Of a stretch of 64,000 bases of DNA, positions 35,106 through 49,046 are shown piece by piece (the first letter of the stretch is position 1; the number at the start of each line of letters is the position of its first letter). The stretch is from contig USEM01000005.1 in the NCBI GenBank assembly GCA_900553695.1, positions 1,455 to 65,454 on the forward strand, written 5' to 3'. The position numbers and the translations under genes were made by a program. Below the pieces are notes generated by a model. The model worked only from the letters and a program-made list of their open reading frames with translations, was not told the origin of the DNA and made no database searches. Origin of the DNA: an uncultured Clostridium sp. GTDB lineage: Bacteria > Bacillota > Clostridia > TANB77 > CAG-508.

Positions 35106-36029
35106 ATGCCATCAAATCCAATGCAAAGAAAAGTAAGAAATTCATTTTTATTAGGAGTTTTAGTAATGCTAGTAATAGCAATTTTAATAGGAGCAATTGT
35201 ATACCTTGTTGTAATAAAACCAAAGGCAGACAAGGAAAAAGCAGATGCAACTCAGTATGACTATGTTTATAGACTAAAATCAGGAAAAAGTGTAAATTCT
35301 GGAGAAGAAATAACAGGTTCAATGGTTGAAGCAGTTGAGATACCTGTAACTACAAATAATACAGACTTTATTAGAGCAAAACGTACAGATCAAACAGGCA
35401 AATTAGTCGATGTTGCTTTCACATCTGGATATAAAAGTAAAGTTGCGTTAAAAGAAGGAACAATTTTAACAAAGAGTATGTTAATGTCTACAGAGGATGA
35501 GGATATAGAAAACTCTTTAAGATATATGGAATATAATATGATAACAATGCCAACAACACTAGAAGAAGGGGATTATATAGATATAAGACTAAGATTGCCA
35601 AACTCACAAGATTTAATTGTAATATCAAAAAAATCTATAGTAAGTATATACAATCAAACTGTGGGATTTAACTTAACAGAAGATGAGATACTACTATTAA
35701 ACAGTGCTATTGTAGAATCATATAAGATGACATCTTCAGAATTATATTTAGCAAAATATGTAGAACCAGGAATGCAAGAGAAATCTGTATATACATATAG
35801 CCCATCAGAGGAAGTTGTAAATTTAATACAATCAAATCCTAACATTGTAGCAACAGCAAGAGAAAGTATTGCAAACAAATACCTAAACTCAGGAAATATA
35901 AGAAATCCAATTAATAGCGCATTGTCTCAATATGCAGAAGATGCTAAATTCAATGTTGAGTCAGGAATGCAACAACAGATTACAAATGCAAAACAAGCAA
36001 GAGAAAGTTATTTGTCAGGATTAGAATAA
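35106..36029 (+). CDS. CpaB/RcpC-like pilus assembly protein (N-terminal TM anchor)
   Basis: AGGAGG RBS. One TM, then SAF-like and beta-rich domains. First gene of a co-directional, tightly spaced cluster with a CpaF-type ATPase. Confidence 0.5.
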   Translation: MPSNPMQRKVRNSFLLGVLVMLVIAILIGAIVYLVVIKPKADKEKADATQYDYVYRLKSGKSVNSGEEITGSMVEAVEIPVTTNNTDFIRAKRTDQTGKLVDVAFTSGYKSKVALKEGTILTKSMLMSTEDEDIENSLRYMEYNMITMPTTLEEGDYIDIRLRLPNSQDLIVISKKSIVSIYNQTVGFNLTEDEILLLNSAIVESYKMTSSELYLAKYVEPGMQEKSVYTYSPSEEVVNLIQSNPNIVATARESIANKYLNSGNIRNPINSALSQYAEDAKFNVESGMQQQITNAKQARESYLSGLE

Positions 36030-36055
36030 AAAATGTAACTTAGGGAGGAAACAAC

Positions 36056-36733
36056 TTGAAAAAGATAGGTTTTATAGGAGCATATGATAAAACAGATTTG
36101 CTTATATATATTGCCAAATTACTTGTTGAAAATGATGTAAAAGTTTTAATCGTAGATGCAACTACTTTGCAAAAAACAAGGTACACAGTACCTTGTATTA
36201 TGCCCAGTAGAAAATACATAACAACATATGAAGACATGGATATTGCAATAGGCTTTGAAAATCTCCAAGAAATAATGAACTATGCTGGAACACAAGAGTT
36301 TAACTATGATATTATGCTGTTAGATATAGACAACAGGGAAGCTTTTGAAAATTTTGAAATGTATACTTCTGATAAGAATTATTTTGTGACCGCATTTGAT
36401 AATTATTCAATAAAAAAAGGTTTGGAAACTGTTGGGCAATCTGAAGAAAAAATGCTAATGACTAAAATTTTATTTTCAAAGAACATGGACAGAGATGAAG
36501 ACGAATATCTAAATTTTTTATCTTTCTATTATGCGGTAAAATGGAGTAAGGAAAAAATCTACTTCCCATTTGAAGCAGGAGATAGTTCTGTTATAGTGCA
36601 AAATCAAAGAAATGCGAGAATTAGCTTTAAAGAATTATCAATGCAATATAAAGAAGGTATTTTAGAAATTATATCTCAAATTGCACCAGAAATAAGACTT
36701 GGTGATGTGAAAAAAATGCTAAAAAACATATAA
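36056..36733 (+). CDS. ParA/MinD-fold protein with degenerate P-loop (TadZ/CpaE-like)
   Basis: KKIGFIGAYDKTDLLIYIAKLL..VKVLIVDAT and YDIMLLDID match the ParA fold layout, but KGGxGKT is replaced by GAYDKTD. Confidence 0.5.
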   Translation: MKKIGFIGAYDKTDLLIYIAKLLVENDVKVLIVDATTLQKTRYTVPCIMPSRKYITTYEDMDIAIGFENLQEIMNYAGTQEFNYDIMLLDIDNREAFENFEMYTSDKNYFVTAFDNYSIKKGLETVGQSEEKMLMTKILFSKNMDRDEDEYLNFLSFYYAVKWSKEKIYFPFEAGDSSVIVQNQRNARISFKELSMQYKEGILEIISQIAPEIRLGDVKKMLKNI

Positions 36734-46025: not shown

Positions 46026-49000
46026 ATGAAACTACAAAATTTAGCAATAATATTTTTAGTTATAACAATACCCTTAATTGTAATTTTGTCATATTATTTG
46101 AACATGCAACAGCAAACATTAAAGTTGCAAGCAGAATACGATACAAAACTTGCGGAGGCAACAAAGGAAGGAATAAAGGCTTTCGAGGTAAATACAGTAG
46201 ATTGGTCAGAATGGGTAAGTGAAGTAAATAGCCAAGCAACAAGAAATAATGTACAAGCAGTAATAAATACGTTTATAACAAGTTTATCAAACAACCTACA
46301 TTTATCTGGAACAGCAAAGGAGTATATGTTAAATTACATACCAGCAATAGCCGTAACAATGTATGATGGATATTACATTTATGCTCCAACATATGTGCCA
46401 GTTACAGCTACAAATAGTAATGGTGTGCAAATGTTTTATGAATCTGGTACAGCTAATAAAATAACTCTATCAGATGCAGGAGAAATTTTATATGAAGCAG
46501 ATGTAGATAAAGGAATAACAGGGCAAACATATACATATACATACACAAATGAAGCAATGGAAACAGAAATTCAAACTTTTTCAAACTTAACAACAAATAT
46601 AAATGAAGCCAAAATGGAATACAGAAATATTCTAAATAACAAAATAGCATATGCAGCGAGGTATAGAGATACAGCAAATAAAAGTAGAACAAATGTTGTT
46701 GTTAATTACACTTTAGATAACAGAATATATGTATATGGAAAAGTAAATGGAGAAGTTGTAAATAAAGATGGATATTTAATTTATCTAGAAAGCAATATAC
46801 TACCAAGAGCTTATATACCCAATGCATATTTAAGTAATCCAAAGGATTCGCATATAATAGTTGATCATAAAATAACTGGTCTAGAATGTGACAATACAGA
46901 AATAGAGCCAGAAATACTAGAGGAACAGGTTTTATGCAAGGAAGATAGTCAATATGTAATTAAAACTTTTAAATATATATATGATATAACACACGAAAAA
47001 TTATATTATGATGAAATTGCAGATAATTTCTTTACAATAGATTCAACAACTAAAGAAAAAAATTTTATAAGTAATTCGAATAACATAAAAATAGGTTCAG
47101 AAGATTGCAGATATAAATCTGTTTCAATTCTATGGGGAGATTCAGATGGAACAACAGAATATAAAAAAGTATATCAAGCAATAAATGGAAAAGATAAAGG
47201 AAAATGGTGTATAAGTATTAAGCCAGAAAATGCTCAAACAGACAAACACAAAGAAACAATAGATACAGAAATAAAATCAGAAAAACTAAAAGACTTAGGG
47301 CTTGATGATATAAGATACAGTACAATATATAGAGATTTTAGTGCAATAAATTATTATGTAGAAGCATATGCTTTTACAAATTGGGTAAAACAAAACTTAG
47401 GAAATAGAAACCTAGAAATAGTACAAAAGAAATCTAACAATACTATAGAAAATCCAATAATACTTAGCTCTAATATATTTAAAATAAGTGCAACTAATGA
47501 TCCGGAAGATGAAACATCAGAAATAGTACAGCATAAAAAAGGAGTAATGAGAGATGCTGTAACAACAAACTTGAACTTGGCTATATCAAATTATAATGGT
47601 CCAGGAGAGACTATATATAAATTGCCAAAACTAACAGATAGTGACTGGGAACAGTTATTTAGCAATATTTCTTTAATAACATTCTTCCAAGGTGTGCCAA
47701 TAGGACTAAAAACATACAACAACTATGCAATAGCAACAAGTACAACAAATAGGGAATATGTAGACCCAGGAGAACTATATTTTAGTGGAGATGATATTAA
47801 CTATCATAGAGTAAATTGTGAAAAGTGTGGAAATGTAGTTTACACTGGTTATAGAAGTGTAGAATATGTACAAAAAGAGTTTTTAAATGGAACTGATAAT
47901 ATATATTATTATCAACATAATGATAATAAAAATGGAACATCAAGAACAGCATGTTACTATTGTGCAGTAAATAAATCAAATTACAAGCAAACATCAGATA
48001 AAAAAATAGCATATTTGCAGGAAAAATCATATAACGAAGCATTAGCAAGAGAGAGATACTATCAAAAGCAAACTTTAGATGGAAAAATAGGAATAACAAT
48101 ATTTTATCATCCAACATATGAAGTTGGAGGAGAAATAACAGCAATAAATGACATCCCAGAACCACAAGACGCCGAGATTGGTGTTGCTGCAGAAATTCAG
48201 GGTAAAAATCCTACACCAAATATAACTACAAATAATAAATTTATAAAGTATGTATTTGTTGGTTGGACTGATGTACCAAATTCTACTACTGTAAAATATC
48301 AAGCTGGGGAGATGGCGACTTTTTATGAGGATGTAGATCTTTATGCTGTTTGGAGAATTTCATTAAGTGAATTAGATTGGACAAGAGATTTTAAATGGGG
48401 AAAAGATACACCAAGTTATTGGGATGGTGGAGATCATGAAGTTTATGATGGAAGTATATCAAACATAAGAATAACTGAAGCTACAGAAGGTGCTAAAGTT
48501 GAAATGACAGGAAATAGTCAATTCGAAGGTAAAGGAGCAACTTGGGCAACATTTAAATCAGAATTTATATCAATACAAGAGTTTCAATTTACATACCATG
48601 TAAATAAGGGAGATAGCTTTAATGCAGTTGGATTTATGTTTAATGTTATTGATCAAGGTAGCTATTTGGAAGGATATATGTTTAGTATAAACTTTACAGG
48701 AAAACCAAAAGAAGAGGCAGGAGATACAGGATCAATATTTAAATTTAGATATAATAAAAATAGTAATACAAAAAATATAGAATCACTTACACGTGTTGGG
48801 TCAGCTTTCCACATAAATGTTTCCTCAAATAGGTATAGTACAACAAGTGGTAGTATGAGCATAAAAGTTCAGGAAAATGGATATTTAGTTACTGGTACAG
48901 AAATGACGGGTTCAAGCTTCATACCGGTAGATAATCCTCAACCAGATACATTTGGCTTCATGTCAGATCACTATTCACATGGTTGTGAGCAAATTGGTTA

Positions 49001-49046
49001 TTATAAAATAGACAATATAAAAATTATTGCAGTAAGAAACAAATAG
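46026..49046 (+). CDS. large (1006 aa) membrane-anchored pilus-associated/adhesin-like protein
   Basis: N-terminal TM. Internal CEKCG...CYYC cysteine pairs. A Listeria-Bacteroides-type repeat (FVGWTDVPNSTTVKYQAGEMATFYEDVDLYAVW). C-terminal beta-rich lectin-like region. Last gene of the cluster. Confidence 0.55.
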   Translation: MKLQNLAIIFLVITIPLIVILSYYLNMQQQTLKLQAEYDTKLAEATKEGIKAFEVNTVDWSEWVSEVNSQATRNNVQAVINTFITSLSNNLHLSGTAKEYMLNYIPAIAVTMYDGYYIYAPTYVPVTATNSNGVQMFYESGTANKITLSDAGEILYEADVDKGITGQTYTYTYTNEAMETEIQTFSNLTTNINEAKMEYRNILNNKIAYAARYRDTANKSRTNVVVNYTLDNRIYVYGKVNGEVVNKDGYLIYLESNILPRAYIPNAYLSNPKDSHIIVDHKITGLECDNTEIEPEILEEQVLCKEDSQYVIKTFKYIYDITHEKLYYDEIADNFFTIDSTTKEKNFISNSNNIKIGSEDCRYKSVSILWGDSDGTTEYKKVYQAINGKDKGKWCISIKPENAQTDKHKETIDTEIKSEKLKDLGLDDIRYSTIYRDFSAINYYVEAYAFTNWVKQNLGNRNLEIVQKKSNNTIENPIILSSNIFKISATNDPEDETSEIVQHKKGVMRDAVTTNLNLAISNYNGPGETIYKLPKLTDSDWEQLFSNISLITFFQGVPIGLKTYNNYAIATSTTNREYVDPGELYFSGDDINYHRVNCEKCGNVVYTGYRSVEYVQKEFLNGTDNIYYYQHNDNKNGTSRTACYYCAVNKSNYKQTSDKKIAYLQEKSYNEALARERYYQKQTLDGKIGITIFYHPTYEVGGEITAINDIPEPQDAEIGVAAEIQGKNPTPNITTNNKFIKYVFVGWTDVPNSTTVKYQAGEMATFYEDVDLYAVWRISLSELDWTRDFKWGKDTPSYWDGGDHEVYDGSISNIRITEATEGAKVEMTGNSQFEGKGATWATFKSEFISIQEFQFTYHVNKGDSFNAVGFMFNVIDQGSYLEGYMFSINFTGKPKEEAGDTGSIFKFRYNKNSNTKNIESLTRVGSAFHINVSSNRYSTTSGSMSIKVQENGYLVTGTEMTGSSFIPVDNPQPDTFGFMSDHYSHGCEQIGYYKIDNIKIIAVRNK

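Follow-up and report, generated by a model that had tools for sequence, protein, structure and literature searches.

A Tad-related pilus gene cluster of the TANB77 order whose pilin-like subunits start at Met-Glu-Asn-Ala without a leader peptide

The locus described here raises the question of what machine is encoded by a row of pilin-like genes with no prepilin peptidase gene beside them, and how its subunits would be assembled. Inspection of the window, the whole 64-kb stretch of DNA that was analysed, revealed 13 tightly spaced, co-directional plus-strand genes (35106-49046) with a terminator at their end. The products comprise a SAF protein resembling CpaB, a pair of ParA-like proteins, an ATPase of the CpaF family, an 8-TM protein of 694 aa, seven small pilin-like proteins and a protein of 1006 aa. 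The original prediction had named 13 such genes and a terminator behind them; all were found in place on the plus strand, including the genes for the five small proteins, for both MSDT paralogues and for the 1006-aa product, and the terminator is strong. The features are as follows, with gene numbers after Kim et al.

35106..36029, plus strand: CpaB/RcpC-like protein, 307 aa, N-terminal TM helix and SAF domain; homologue of gene 927
36056..36733, plus strand: ParA/MinD-like protein 1, 225 aa, TadZ-like, degenerate Walker A (GAYDKT); gene 928
36744..37574, plus strand: ParA-like protein 2, CpaE-like, degenerate P-loop (ETGQT); gene 929
37599..39501, plus strand: CpaF/TadA-family secretion ATPase, 633 aa when repaired, N-terminal TM helix; gene 930
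39514..41598, plus strand: polytopic membrane protein, 694 aa, about 8 TM, presumed fused TadC+TadB platform; gene 931
41616..42038, plus strand: MENA-type pilin-like protein, 140 aa, N-terminus MDNAAQALLIAGG, leaderless start; homologous to the 42053 and 43034 products
42053..42478, plus strand: MENA-type pilin-like protein, 141 aa, N-terminus MENATQALVIVGA, leaderless start; homology by hhalign
42527..42961, plus strand: 144-aa protein with signal-peptide-like N-terminus (MKKTVLIIAIP...), globular domain homologous to that of the MENA pilins; gene 934
43034..43411, plus strand: MENA-type pilin-like protein, 125 aa counted from the conserved Met, assigned by AF2 model and conservation pattern
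43512..43982, plus strand: pilin-like protein, 156 aa, N-terminus MENATDALKMAFA..., with only the MENA helix in common with MENA pilins; gene 936
44001..44516, plus strand: MSDT-type pilin-like protein, 171 aa, separate family; gene 937
44588..45997, plus strand: MSDT-type paralogue, 469 aa, C-terminal extension of about 300 aa
46026..49046, plus strand: 1006-aa protein, TM anchor at N-terminus; homologue of 'pilin 938'
49061..49094, plus strand: intrinsic terminator, 15-bp stem with 6 G-C pairs, 4-nt loop, T-rich tail

The order cpaB, parA, parA, one-TM ATPase, 8-TM protein of about 690 aa, six to seven small single-TM proteins and a large protein is that of Table 1 in Kim et al. (Nat Commun 2024, PMC11680825), who described a 12-gene "pilus gene cluster exclusively conserved in TANB77", an order of uncultured gut Clostridia in which about 95% of the species have kept it. 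Since gene order and product sizes (358, 231, 280, 640, 693, 165, 170, 143, 146, 237, 178 and 621 aa in the published table) match, the locus is not new, a point of which the original prediction was unaware, and we consider it likely to be a copy of that chromosomal Tad-related cluster, working by the mechanism proposed below. What is novel here is that the pilin-like subunits start directly at Met-Glu-Asn-Ala, without a leader peptide, a feature not discussed by Kim et al., who assayed recombinant protein 938 only, on dendritic cells. No pilus has been seen so far.

The same gene order recurred in 84 independent loci (for example L008 and L016), which is far beyond chance. Most of these belong to MAGs of uncultured Clostridia, low in GC and gut-derived. 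Identity was 76-93% for the ATPase and 53-80% for the platform, compared with 22-67% for the pilins, a selection pattern that counts in favour of this reading. The CpaB-like protein, whose gene heads the module in 80 of the 84 loci, is 31-49% identical to relatives. The original reading as a Tad-related, type IV filament-like system agrees with the CpaB-like and ParA-like proteins standing in Tad order and with the ATPase, whose only solved relatives are CpaF proteins; Kim et al. (PMC11680825) arrived at the same annotation. The label 'archaeal-type' had no evidence behind it.

A single additional C near position 38943 breaks the ATPase reading frame, leaving two ORFs at 37599-39005 and 38977-39501, a split missed in the original prediction. 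The repaired 633-aa protein matched the CpaF structure 8rkd (E=7e-10, residues 271-545), scored 25.3 bits with Pfam T2SSE (cut-off 24.9), and had TIGR03819 as its best NCBIfam match (E=1.5e-7); the family profile matched CpaF alone in the PDB. Walker A (GEQGCGKTT), Walker B (NIIGEV) and the His box (THHAKT) are intact, and the TM helix claimed at its N-terminus was recognized as a hydrophobic helix. Homologues in the 84 loci are unbroken (632-782 aa). Because all aligned relatives are without the extra C, and the same window has both dnaG and gerA broken into three ORFs apiece, the frameshift is probably an assembly error. Were it real, that single C would mark this strain's copy as a decaying pseudogene cluster, which we hold to be very unlikely: dnaG is essential, the Gly-rich gene at 32475 is frameshifted as well, these splits together point to systematic indel errors, and the remaining genes of the locus are all intact. 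The Gly-rich gene does exist upstream as predicted; its association with the locus did not recur in other species.

The proposed CpaB/RcpC-like anchor was borne out, with a TM helix at the N-terminus and a SAF domain (Pfam SAF, 21.3 bits; cut-off 21); the 35106 product also matched the CpaB model TIGR03177 at E=2e-4, far under that model's cut-off. The two proteins assigned to the ParA/MinD fold gave weak profile matches, and their P-loops are degenerate as claimed. The 36056 product matched MinD only (E=0.24); G8, K12 and D34 are invariant in its alignment, its gene keeps its position in 82 loci, and structural homology to TadZ has been reported for its homologue, gene 928 (Kim et al., PMC11680825). 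Matches of the 36744 product were to CapB (E=3.6e-4), the ParA-family ATPase 3ea0 (E=1.4e-3) and Get3. The alignment consensus of this family begins MxIIxFW, and the Met at 36765 is probably the true start.

The platform gene always follows the ATPase gene. It was predicted to encode a TadB/C-like fused platform, of which the single 694-aa protein with eight hydrophobic segments stood, while T2SSF likeness could be recovered neither by sequence nor by Foldseek against the PDB, which was uninformative in this respect. The AF2 model consists entirely of helices (pLDDT 71). No Pfam match was obtained for 41 members of the family, no hit in a PDB profile search and no internal repeat within the protein; comparison with TadB/C of Rhizobium and Streptomyces by hmmsearch and hhalign gave scores equal to those of reversed controls. 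The family comprises 1,216 clusters at 50% identity, and the hmmsearch also took in two unannotated Paraclostridium ORFs. A TadBC-like role is suggested by a structural match from the literature, in which TadC and TadB were Foldseek matches to the two halves of the 693-aa protein (Kim et al. 2024, PMC11680825).

The small proteins fall into distinct families. The 41616, 42053 and 43034 products are homologous over their full length (hhalign probability 100%). The 42527 product, whose gene was found in 79 loci, aligns with the MENA families only beyond about residue 41 (98-99.5%), and the 43512 product in its first 42-49 residues only (97%), so that four paralogues have the N-terminal MENA helix in common. 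A sigma-70-like site lies at 42483-42511 (11 of 12 positions), and such sites occur at chance frequency in the region. The MSDT family, in which M1, P22 and D31 are invariant, showed no relation to the MENA families by hhalign; a homologue of its 171-aa member lies on a T. composti plasmid. Most loci have a single MSDT gene and L005, L057, L058 and L076 have two, the 469-aa paralogue being an extra copy of a few species, with no recognisable domain in its extension. The 43034 product is the best candidate for the major subunit. Its AF2 model (pLDDT 87.3) has a helix at residues 2-52 followed by a strand, a helix and three strands, a lollipop-like fold with a 51-residue N-terminal helix and a small alpha/beta head. 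M1, E2, N3, L8 and A11 are invariant in this family, and the C-terminal half is hypervariable. None of its 6,898 homologues is named or has a Pfam domain, the model found no match in the PDB by Foldseek, and no Pfam pilin family was matched. A conserved N-terminal TM helix with an ectodomain is, besides, a generic architecture.

The MENA-type genes begin with an invariant M-E-N-A-[ST]-K-A-L (M100 E96 N99 A95 in the N-terminal logo of 211 genes). The median distance from this start to the upstream in-frame stop was 5 codons, a Shine-Dalgarno-like motif lay 6-16 nt upstream in 195 of the 211 genes, and only 9 had an alternative upstream start. Starts were likewise leaderless in 60 of 60 genes of the 43512 type and in 72 MSDT genes. 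Since translation starts at M-E-N-A, the leader peptide is absent from the pilin-like subunits. Classical type IV pilins, in contrast, are defined by a class III signal peptide, and the lack of a G/xxxE site noted originally is real. Because they begin at Met-Glu-Asn-Ala, the subunits may not need a prepilin peptidase, and assembly may proceed without one; by analogy, Glu2 might take the role that Glu5 has in classical pilins.

Homologues of the 1006-aa protein (426-1239 aa) close the module in 65 loci. They combine a conserved N-terminal domain, also present in a 342-aa T. composti plasmid protein, with a variable C-terminal region; no Pfam domain was found in the 1006-aa protein, and a TadE/PilV-like fold has been assigned to the N-terminal 25% of protein 938 (Kim et al., PMC11680825). 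It is presumed to be a tip or adhesin subunit. We infer a machine in which the TM-tethered CpaF-family ATPase would dock on the single 694-aa polytopic protein standing in for the TadB/TadC pair. The two ParA-like proteins with degenerate P-loops, as TadZ/CpaE analogues, would position or scaffold it, and the bitopic SAF-domain protein, as CpaB/RcpC analogue, could form the conduit on the cell-wall side. ATPase and platform would draw the small bitopic subunits out of the membrane and build a surface filament by stacking them through the conserved N-terminal helices; the divergent subunits (42527, 43512 and MSDT types) and the large variable protein may prime or cap this filament, the latter as a putative tip adhesin.

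The claim that no prepilin peptidase lies in or near the cluster is correct: the 64-kb window contains no GxGD-type prepilin peptidase motif and no polytopic ORF matching Peptidase_A24, and no peptidase-like ORF was found within 10 kb of the locus in the 84 loci or next to three plasmid copies. Contrary to what had been supposed, the absence is not unusual in itself; tadV often lies elsewhere in the genome and is classed as a 'loner', and a peptidase is never present in MSH loci (Denise et al. 2019). With peptidases often encoded apart and shared between systems (Denise et al. 2019), the subunits could be conventional, an unlinked A24 peptidase (ComC, PilD or TadV) trimming the short N-terminus at a non-canonical site, e.g. 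after Met-Glu-Asn or Met-Glu-Asn-Ala. We regard this as possible, if somewhat unlikely. Our inspection covered 64 kb of this genome and 10 kb either side of the relatives, and the residues ahead of the conserved N-A-S-K-A-L core are ME in TANB77 and MST in T. composti, which fits cleavage in front of the core. However, no Gly or Ala stands at -1 after a basic leader; the two to three residues ahead of the helix are acidic or polar, as they are in the wider family (MSDGMVKGL, MDNSIVKSL, MNENILSF, MDSPVVKK), and the empty surroundings of the 84 loci and the plasmid copies also speak against trimming.

A machine that builds no filament, such as a short pseudopilus or piston exporting or displaying the large variable protein, or a set of mere membrane-anchored surface proteins, appears improbable. 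The subunits lack any type IV pilin sequence hallmark, in the 42527 paralogue the same globular domain is preceded by an ordinary signal-peptide-like N-terminus, and the last gene is highly variable in length. A membrane anchor, however, hardly explains why the first 15 residues, charged E2 and K6 included, are extremely conserved; a polymer held together by helix-helix packing would typically show such conservation, and the same helix recurs in four to six paralogues, much like the sets of minor pilins in type IV filaments. We likewise doubt that the machine is mainly a DNA-transfer or DNA-uptake device, i.e. a pilus for mating-pair formation or competence that derives from a plasmid conjugation module, rather than an adhesin. 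The whole module occurs on large plasmids of Firmicutes, 35 of which were picked up by tblastn with the platform. On pTHECO01, a type IV coupling protein and a replication-relaxation protein are encoded about 5-9 kb upstream of it, a P. urinalis plasmid has a relaxation protein two genes upstream, C. argentinense pRSJ17_1 has a C40 cell-wall hydrolase upstream, and TIGR03819 is named 'TadA family conjugal transfer-associated ATPase'. Yet MOB-suite classed all 35 plasmids as non-mobilizable, and on plasmids the genes that follow, for cell-wall-binding proteins, a giant DUF5704 surface protein and GGDEF/HD proteins, form an adhesion/biofilm signature; the TANB77 chromosomal loci inspected had no obvious adjacent relaxase, coupling protein or com gene, their common neighbours being a HAD hydrolase, hpf, the SASP gene and spoIVB. 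Most improbable is a sporulation-associated filament or channel, whether spore-surface appendage or mother-cell machine. Sporulation does use a T2SS/T4P-like ATPase, SpoIIIAA, and the window carries gerA, a spore permease, spoIID, spoIVB (49434-50288) and spo0A. An SASP gene (34645-34851, minus strand here) lies upstream in 41 of the 84 loci, and spoIVB directly downstream on the same strand in about 54 (median gap 159 bp). For the spore-surface filament originally envisaged, this conserved spoIVB adjacency is the only support, and a sporulation role is unsupported: genes may stay neighbours within one order through plain vertical inheritance, no sporulation-specific regulatory element and no Rfam match were found, a strong terminator stands between the locus and spoIVB here, the plasmid homologues occur in non-sporulation contexts, and in other TANB77 species the locus lies between truA/DUF2651 and mutS2.

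The locus comprises 13 tightly spaced genes, called as ORFs and all running in one direction on the + strand between 35106 and 49046, in a window whose G+C content is about 29% throughout. Their coordinates, direction and spacing, as well as the closing terminator, were borne out as originally observed:

35106-36029, + strand, CpaB-like protein
36056-36733, + strand, ParA-like protein 1
36744-37574, + strand, ParA-like protein 2
37599-39501, + strand, ATPase, present as two overlapping ORFs, 37599-39005 and 38977-39501
39514-41598, + strand, platform protein, 694 aa
41616, 42053 and 43034 (43034-43408), + strand, three pilin-like proteins of the MENA type
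42527 and 43512, + strand, two further small proteins, each the namesake of its type
44001 and 44588, + strand, two MSDT-type proteins, 171 and 469 aa
46026-49046, + strand, large last protein, 1006 aa
49061-49094, terminator-like hairpin directly after the locus, 15-bp stem with six G-C pairs

A cluster of this composition is already in print. Kim et al. (Nat Commun 2024, PMC11680825) described a stretch of 10-14 genes shared by 122 of the 129 species in TANB77, an uncultured order of GTDB. Their Table 1 (genes 927-938 of HRGM_Genome_2725) lists CpaB (358 aa), a TadZ-like (231 aa) and a CpaE-like protein (280 aa), a TadA/CpaF of 640 aa with one TM helix, a 693-aa protein with eight TM helices, six single-TM or signal-peptide proteins of 143-237 aa, and the 621-aa protein 938. 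By Foldseek, they found the halves of the 693-aa protein to resemble TadC and TadB; in protein 938 it was the first quarter, from the N-terminus, that resembled TadE/PilV. Compared from that table, the window ORFs and 84 related loci that we collected from other genomes agree with it in gene order, protein size and TM pattern, so that the original finding is a rediscovery of the published cluster, and the Tad-related filament-like machine is known. The annotation and the kind of host, uncultured low-GC gut Clostridia, are also alike. The window differs by an added 469-aa MSDT paralogue, a last gene of 1006 rather than 621 aa, and an apparent 1-nt frameshift in the ATPase gene. In the same study, recombinant protein 938, whose homologue in the window is the 1006-aa protein, activated dendritic cells via TLR4, and the abundance of TANB77 predicted how checkpoint immunotherapy was responded to; a pilus was not visualised. 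The paper is silent on leaderless N-termini, prepilin peptidase, plasmid relatives and spoIVB synteny; the words 'peptidase' and 'N-terminal' are absent from its text.

The ATPase belongs to the TadA/CpaF family of hexameric secretion ATPases. Taking out one C at about position 38943 joins the two overlapping ORFs into a continuous 633-aa protein, which scores above the Pfam T2SSE cut-off and, between residues 271 and 545, matches the Caulobacter CpaF structures (8rkd/9e24) with E=7e-10. The protein retains intact Walker A, Walker B and His boxes, and a hydrophobic helix stands at the N-terminus. A profile of 13 orthologues found CpaF (2e-9) as the sole PDB family at E<0.01; FlaI, GspE, PilB and VirB11 were not among the matches at that threshold. 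Together with the agreement with Kim et al. (2024), this match to CpaF supports the view that the locus encodes a Tad-related type IV filament-like machine.

The broken reading frame could mean either decay of the gene or an error of assembly. The extra C is missing in every homologous locus (ATC-GGA, against ATCCGGA in the window), and the ATPase is uninterrupted, at 632-782 aa, in all 84 related loci. Other genes of the window are broken as well: the essential dnaG (50584-52358, + strand) falls into three ORFs, carrying the Zn ribbon, DNAG_N with the start of Toprim, and the end of Toprim with DnaB_bind, respectively; gerA (3130-4817, − strand) likewise falls into three ORFs; and a gene for a Gly-rich protein upstream of the locus is split in two (32475-33233 and 33363-34580, + strand) by a frameshift. 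Since the relatives lack the extra C and these other genes are also broken, the ATPase frameshift is probably an assembly indel rather than real decay. The broken conserved genes across the window suggest an indel-rich assembly rather than true pseudogenes.

The assignment of the remaining motor-associated proteins is less direct. In the CpaB-like protein, a TM helix at the N-terminus is combined with a SAF domain that just passes the Pfam cut-off (21.3 bits; cut-off 21), and the protein matches the TIGR03177 CpaB model at E=2e-4 with 20.7 bits, the cut-off being 71. A SAF domain is annotated in its plasmid homologues. A profile search of the PDB with this protein gave nothing useful, and its ubiquitin matches were rejected as repeat artefacts. 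Neither ParA-like protein has a Pfam match. With profiles built from 38-39 orthologues, ParA-like 2 gave weak matches to CapB, the ParA-family ATPase 3ea0 and Get3 (E=4e-4 to 3e-2), and ParA-like 1 matched MinD only (E=0.24). Their P-loops are degenerate (GAYDKT and ETGQT in ParA-like 1 and 2, respectively), and hhalign detects hardly any relationship between the two proteins (probability 16%).

We then consider the platform protein, which has about eight hydrophobic segments and was modelled by AF2 as all-helical with a pLDDT of 71, a value probably held down by the shallow alignments (68-90% identity). Pfam found no match to T2SSF (PF00482), the domain of the TadB and TadC platform proteins, in it or in 41 homologues, its profile had no sequence match in the PDB, and a comparison of its two halves by hhalign revealed no internal repeat. 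Its scores against TadB/TadC of Rhizobium and Streptomyces (hmmsearch and hhalign) equalled those of reversed controls, as did those against two unannotated Paraclostridium plasmid ORFs beside a CpaF/VirB11 gene (hmmsearch only). When the platform and pilin models were compared with the PDB by Foldseek, the best match had E of about 0.3, and the platform result is uninformative; the PDB presumably contains no full-length TadB/C structure. The TadB/C assignment of the platform thus derives from the published Foldseek result and from gene position. A search of 1.84 billion representative proteins with the platform profile returned 1,216 clusters (50% identity) at E<=1e-3, 594 of them at E<=1e-30, and the 150 homologues listed were mostly full length, at about 640-700 aa. 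This number is far above what TANB77 alone would yield, and far below what we would expect had the profile reached the abundant canonical TadB/C proteins. At the level of sequence, the fused 690-aa platform appears to be an isolated family, with no Pfam model and no T2SSF link detectable by HMMER. A prophage or phage origin was considered and rejected, because a phage collection of 50,697 records contained no platform homologue.

The small subunits were modelled and compared by profile. With 75 homologues, AlphaFold2 folded the 43034-43408 product into a helix (residues 2-52), a strand, a helix and three strands, with a mean pLDDT of 87.3. This protein is the candidate major subunit. The predicted architecture is lollipop-like, type IV filament subunits having an N-terminal helix of roughly 50 residues and a globular head; Foldseek found no neighbour of the model in the PDB, solved pilins included. 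Flp_Fap, TadE and N_methyl were absent from the eight pilin-like proteins of the locus and from 41 homologues (Pfam/NCBIfam). In the HMM classification, the ATPase falls with CpaF/T2SSE, and the small proteins and the platform match no pilin or T2SSF family. By hhalign, homology among the 41616, 42053 and 43034 products extends along the entire protein. With the 42527 product they have only the globular domain in common, its N-terminus being of an ordinary MKK-hydrophobic kind, and with the 43512 product only the N-terminal ~45 residues. The MSDT pair and the N-terminal domain of the large last protein are separate families; a PDB profile search with the MSDT family gave nothing useful.

Set against Tad/Flp systems (type IVc; Caulobacter CpaA-F, Aggregatibacter Tad and the monoderm Bifidobacterium breve Tad), the locus has in common an ATPase of the CpaF/TadA family and a downstream set of pilin/pseudopilin genes. 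It also appears to have in common a SAF protein resembling CpaB/RcpC and ParA-type proteins resembling TadZ/CpaE, whose Walker A motifs are atypical. Like monoderm Tad systems, it has no secretin. The differences lie elsewhere. Whereas Tad membership entails Flp-type prepilins (~50-80 aa, with a leader and G/XXXXEY), TadE/F pseudopilins and a TadV/CpaA (A24) peptidase, the locus has neither the G/XXXXEY motif nor a TadE/F-type N-terminus, and no TadV was found within the window or the locus flanks. Its subunits are proteins of 125-170 aa with a globular head, in contrast to the helical Flp pilins of 40-60 aa; its platform, 694 aa long, is a single fusion in which no T2SSF sequence signature can be detected; and its ATPase is membrane-anchored, with a unique N-terminal region of about 270 aa. 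Flp-type pilins are missing and no peptidase was found near the locus; we regard it as a divergent relative of Tad rather than a canonical member, which is predicted to work like a Tad system. Archaeal type IV pili (Epd/Aap) and archaella are likewise monoderm-type machines without a secretin, and their subunits require cleavage by PibD/FlaK/EppA after a basic leader. No sequence match to FlaI, archaellin or class III signal families was found among the locus proteins. Tad ATPases are thought to derive from archaeal ATPases (Denise et al. 2019).

The N-termini of the subunits set the locus apart further. A survey of 211 MENA-type genes in 81 loci identified the conserved Met as the start codon: an in-frame stop lies upstream at a median of 5 codons, and within 10 codons in 172 of the 211 genes; an alternative upstream start exists in only nine; and a Shine-Dalgarno-like motif lies 6-16 nt upstream in 195. 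The logo of these proteins reads M100 E96 N99 A95 S/T K90 A98 L96, followed by about 20 hydrophobic residues. Genes of the 43512 type (60) and the MSDT type (72) have leaderless starts as well. The subunits thus have a hydrophobic helix and an acidic E2, with no basic leader and no Gly/Ala at −1. From the start-site data across the three types, a class III signal peptide, a mark of type IV filament subunits, is lacking. The leaderless subunits are a new point relative to the published cluster, and the biogenesis of the subunits would seem to depart from the type IV rule.

That no prepilin peptidase gene lies in or beside the cluster held true. No GxGD peptidase motif was present in the 64-kb window, none of its polytopic ORFs matched Peptidase_A24, and the 10-kb flanks of the 84 related loci contained no plausible candidate. 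Prepilin peptidase annotation was also absent beside three plasmid copies of the module, and neither the TANB77 paper (PMC11680825) nor the HiFi genome paper mentions a peptidase. However, since tadV often lies elsewhere in the genome and a peptidase is never part of MSH loci (Denise et al. 2019), its absence from the locus is not in itself unusual. What is unusual is that there is no leader to cut. Should these subunits build a filament, the peptidase step is not needed, and Glu2 may take the place of Glu5. In every type IV filament known to us, prepilins are cut by an A24 peptidase. It is conceivable, though we regard it as rather doubtful, that the locus represents a large uncharacterised Tad-related clade whose leaderless subunits, with the initiator Met-Glu-Asn-Ala as mature N-terminus, polymerise without a peptidase, which would make it the first such type IV filament.

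Relatives of the locus were found on plasmids. A tblastn search with the ATPase core gave 69% identity on plasmid pTHECO01 of Thermobacillus composti, which carries the whole module with its order retained. Relative to the window proteins, its homologues are:

SAF protein, 31% identity
two ParA-like proteins, 30% and 23% identity
ATPase, 57% identity over 603 residues
690-aa platform, 35.5% identity
subunit starting MSTNASKAL
MSDT-like protein
N-terminal domain of the large last protein

The same search with the platform identified 35 large plasmids, from Paenibacillus (11), Clostridium (9), Lysinibacillus (8), Butyrivibrio (2) and others. They include C. argentinense pRSJ17_1 and C. botulinum plasmids, pBsph-type plasmids of Lysinibacillus sphaericus and megaplasmids of Butyrivibrio proteoclasticus. 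The whole module was delimited on three of the plasmids:

10644-25152, T. composti pTHECO01 (L085), whole module
10792-23385, C. argentinense pRSJ17_1 (L086), whole module
2921-16342, P. urinalis plasmid (L087), whole module

Downstream of the module, all three carry genes for proteins that bind the cell wall, for a giant surface protein (with a DUF5704 annotation on two of these plasmids) and for GGDEF and HD-domain proteins, and genes for replication-relaxation or type IV coupling proteins lie near it. The module components are all annotated as hypothetical proteins, and a literature search found no functional study of the plasmid modules. MENA- and MSDT-type homologues are present on the plasmids, and their subunit N-termini, like those of the window, are short and non-basic. 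Three sampled distant members showed this gene order too, with short, acidic subunit N-termini (MSDGMVKGL, MDNSIVKSL, MNENILSF and MENVQKAL). The cluster therefore reaches beyond TANB77, where it is chromosomal, and is plasmid-borne in Paenibacillus, Lysinibacillus, Clostridium and Butyrivibrio. Since plasmid hosts can be cultured, they offer models open to genetics for a system that is otherwise uncultured.

The plasmid copies also bear on the membrane anchor of the ATPase. The N-terminal TM helix (37599-37680 in the window) is present in the aligned TANB77 ATPases, whereas the two plasmid ATPases whose N-termini were read, from T. composti (L085 13257) and C. argentinense (L086 13266), have none. 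Its absence from these two raises the possibility of a TANB77-specific or lineage-specific addition, and the anchor may thus be specific to TANB77.

Within databases, the ATPase is represented by 7,485 clusters at E<=1e-5, the best being full length and 81-93% identical, and at least 412 relatives turned up when one genome of each species was scanned. All 80 relatives that were kept are MAGs of uncultured Clostridia from human, ruminant, rabbit and chicken guts, among them Ca. Merdicola, Ca. Scatovivens, Clostridium sp. CAG:780 and CAG-type bins. In all 84 loci the order is alike: the cpaB-like gene, parA-like 1, parA-like 2, the ATPase and platform genes, one or two MENA genes, the 42527-type gene, up to two more MENA genes, the 43512-type gene, MSDT, and finally a large gene whose product has 426-1239 aa. 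Against the window proteins, the ATPases are 76-93% and the platforms 53-80% identical; the values are 29-76% for the ParA-like proteins, 31-49% for CpaB and 22-67% for the small proteins. This steep gradient, from an unusually conserved motor to hypervariable subunits, suggests that a core function is under pressure from host or phage.

The surroundings of the locus were examined in the same loci. In about 54 of the 84, spoIVB is the immediate downstream neighbour and shares the strand of the locus, with a median gap of 159 bp (49434-50288 in the window, where the ORF appears to lack its N-terminal part). Upstream, a SASP gene is found in 41 and a HAD hydrolase gene in 48 of the 84 loci; in other species the locus stands between truA/DUF2651 and mutS2. 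The synteny with spoIVB is real, and vertical inheritance explains it adequately; in the window, a terminator stands between them. Upstream of the locus, the search for a riboswitch or another RNA found none, and the window contains no Rfam family or tRNA. Sigma-70-like sites occur at chance frequency (96 found against 94 expected) and so carry no weight as promoters.

The Gly-rich gene at 32475, whose product has a pilin-like N-terminus, had been noted just upstream of the locus. None of the 84 loci has this gene in its flanks, and we therefore dropped it as a component of the system. Its product has an ALK/LTK-type glycine-rich domain (PF12810, E=1e-11) and the N-terminal anchor MKKERGAITLITL, and the local GC content is 0.37, compared with about 0.29. 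Elsewhere in the window, two adjacent ORFs at 9964-11723 encode membrane proteins of 460 aa (~6 TM) and 126 aa (~4 TM), which have no Pfam match and are not peptidase-like. The region 13377-17432 encodes a run of surface-type proteins with N-terminal anchors; a Big_2 domain in the 13377-14432 product was the only domain found among them, and the products of 15358-16347 and ~16383-17432 are tandem paralogues with the common N-terminus MNEKKISLTTAI. At 57236-57799, a Spo0A-like ORF of 187 aa has a Spo0A_C domain and apparently no complete receiver domain; its shortness may reflect a frameshift or a mis-called start.
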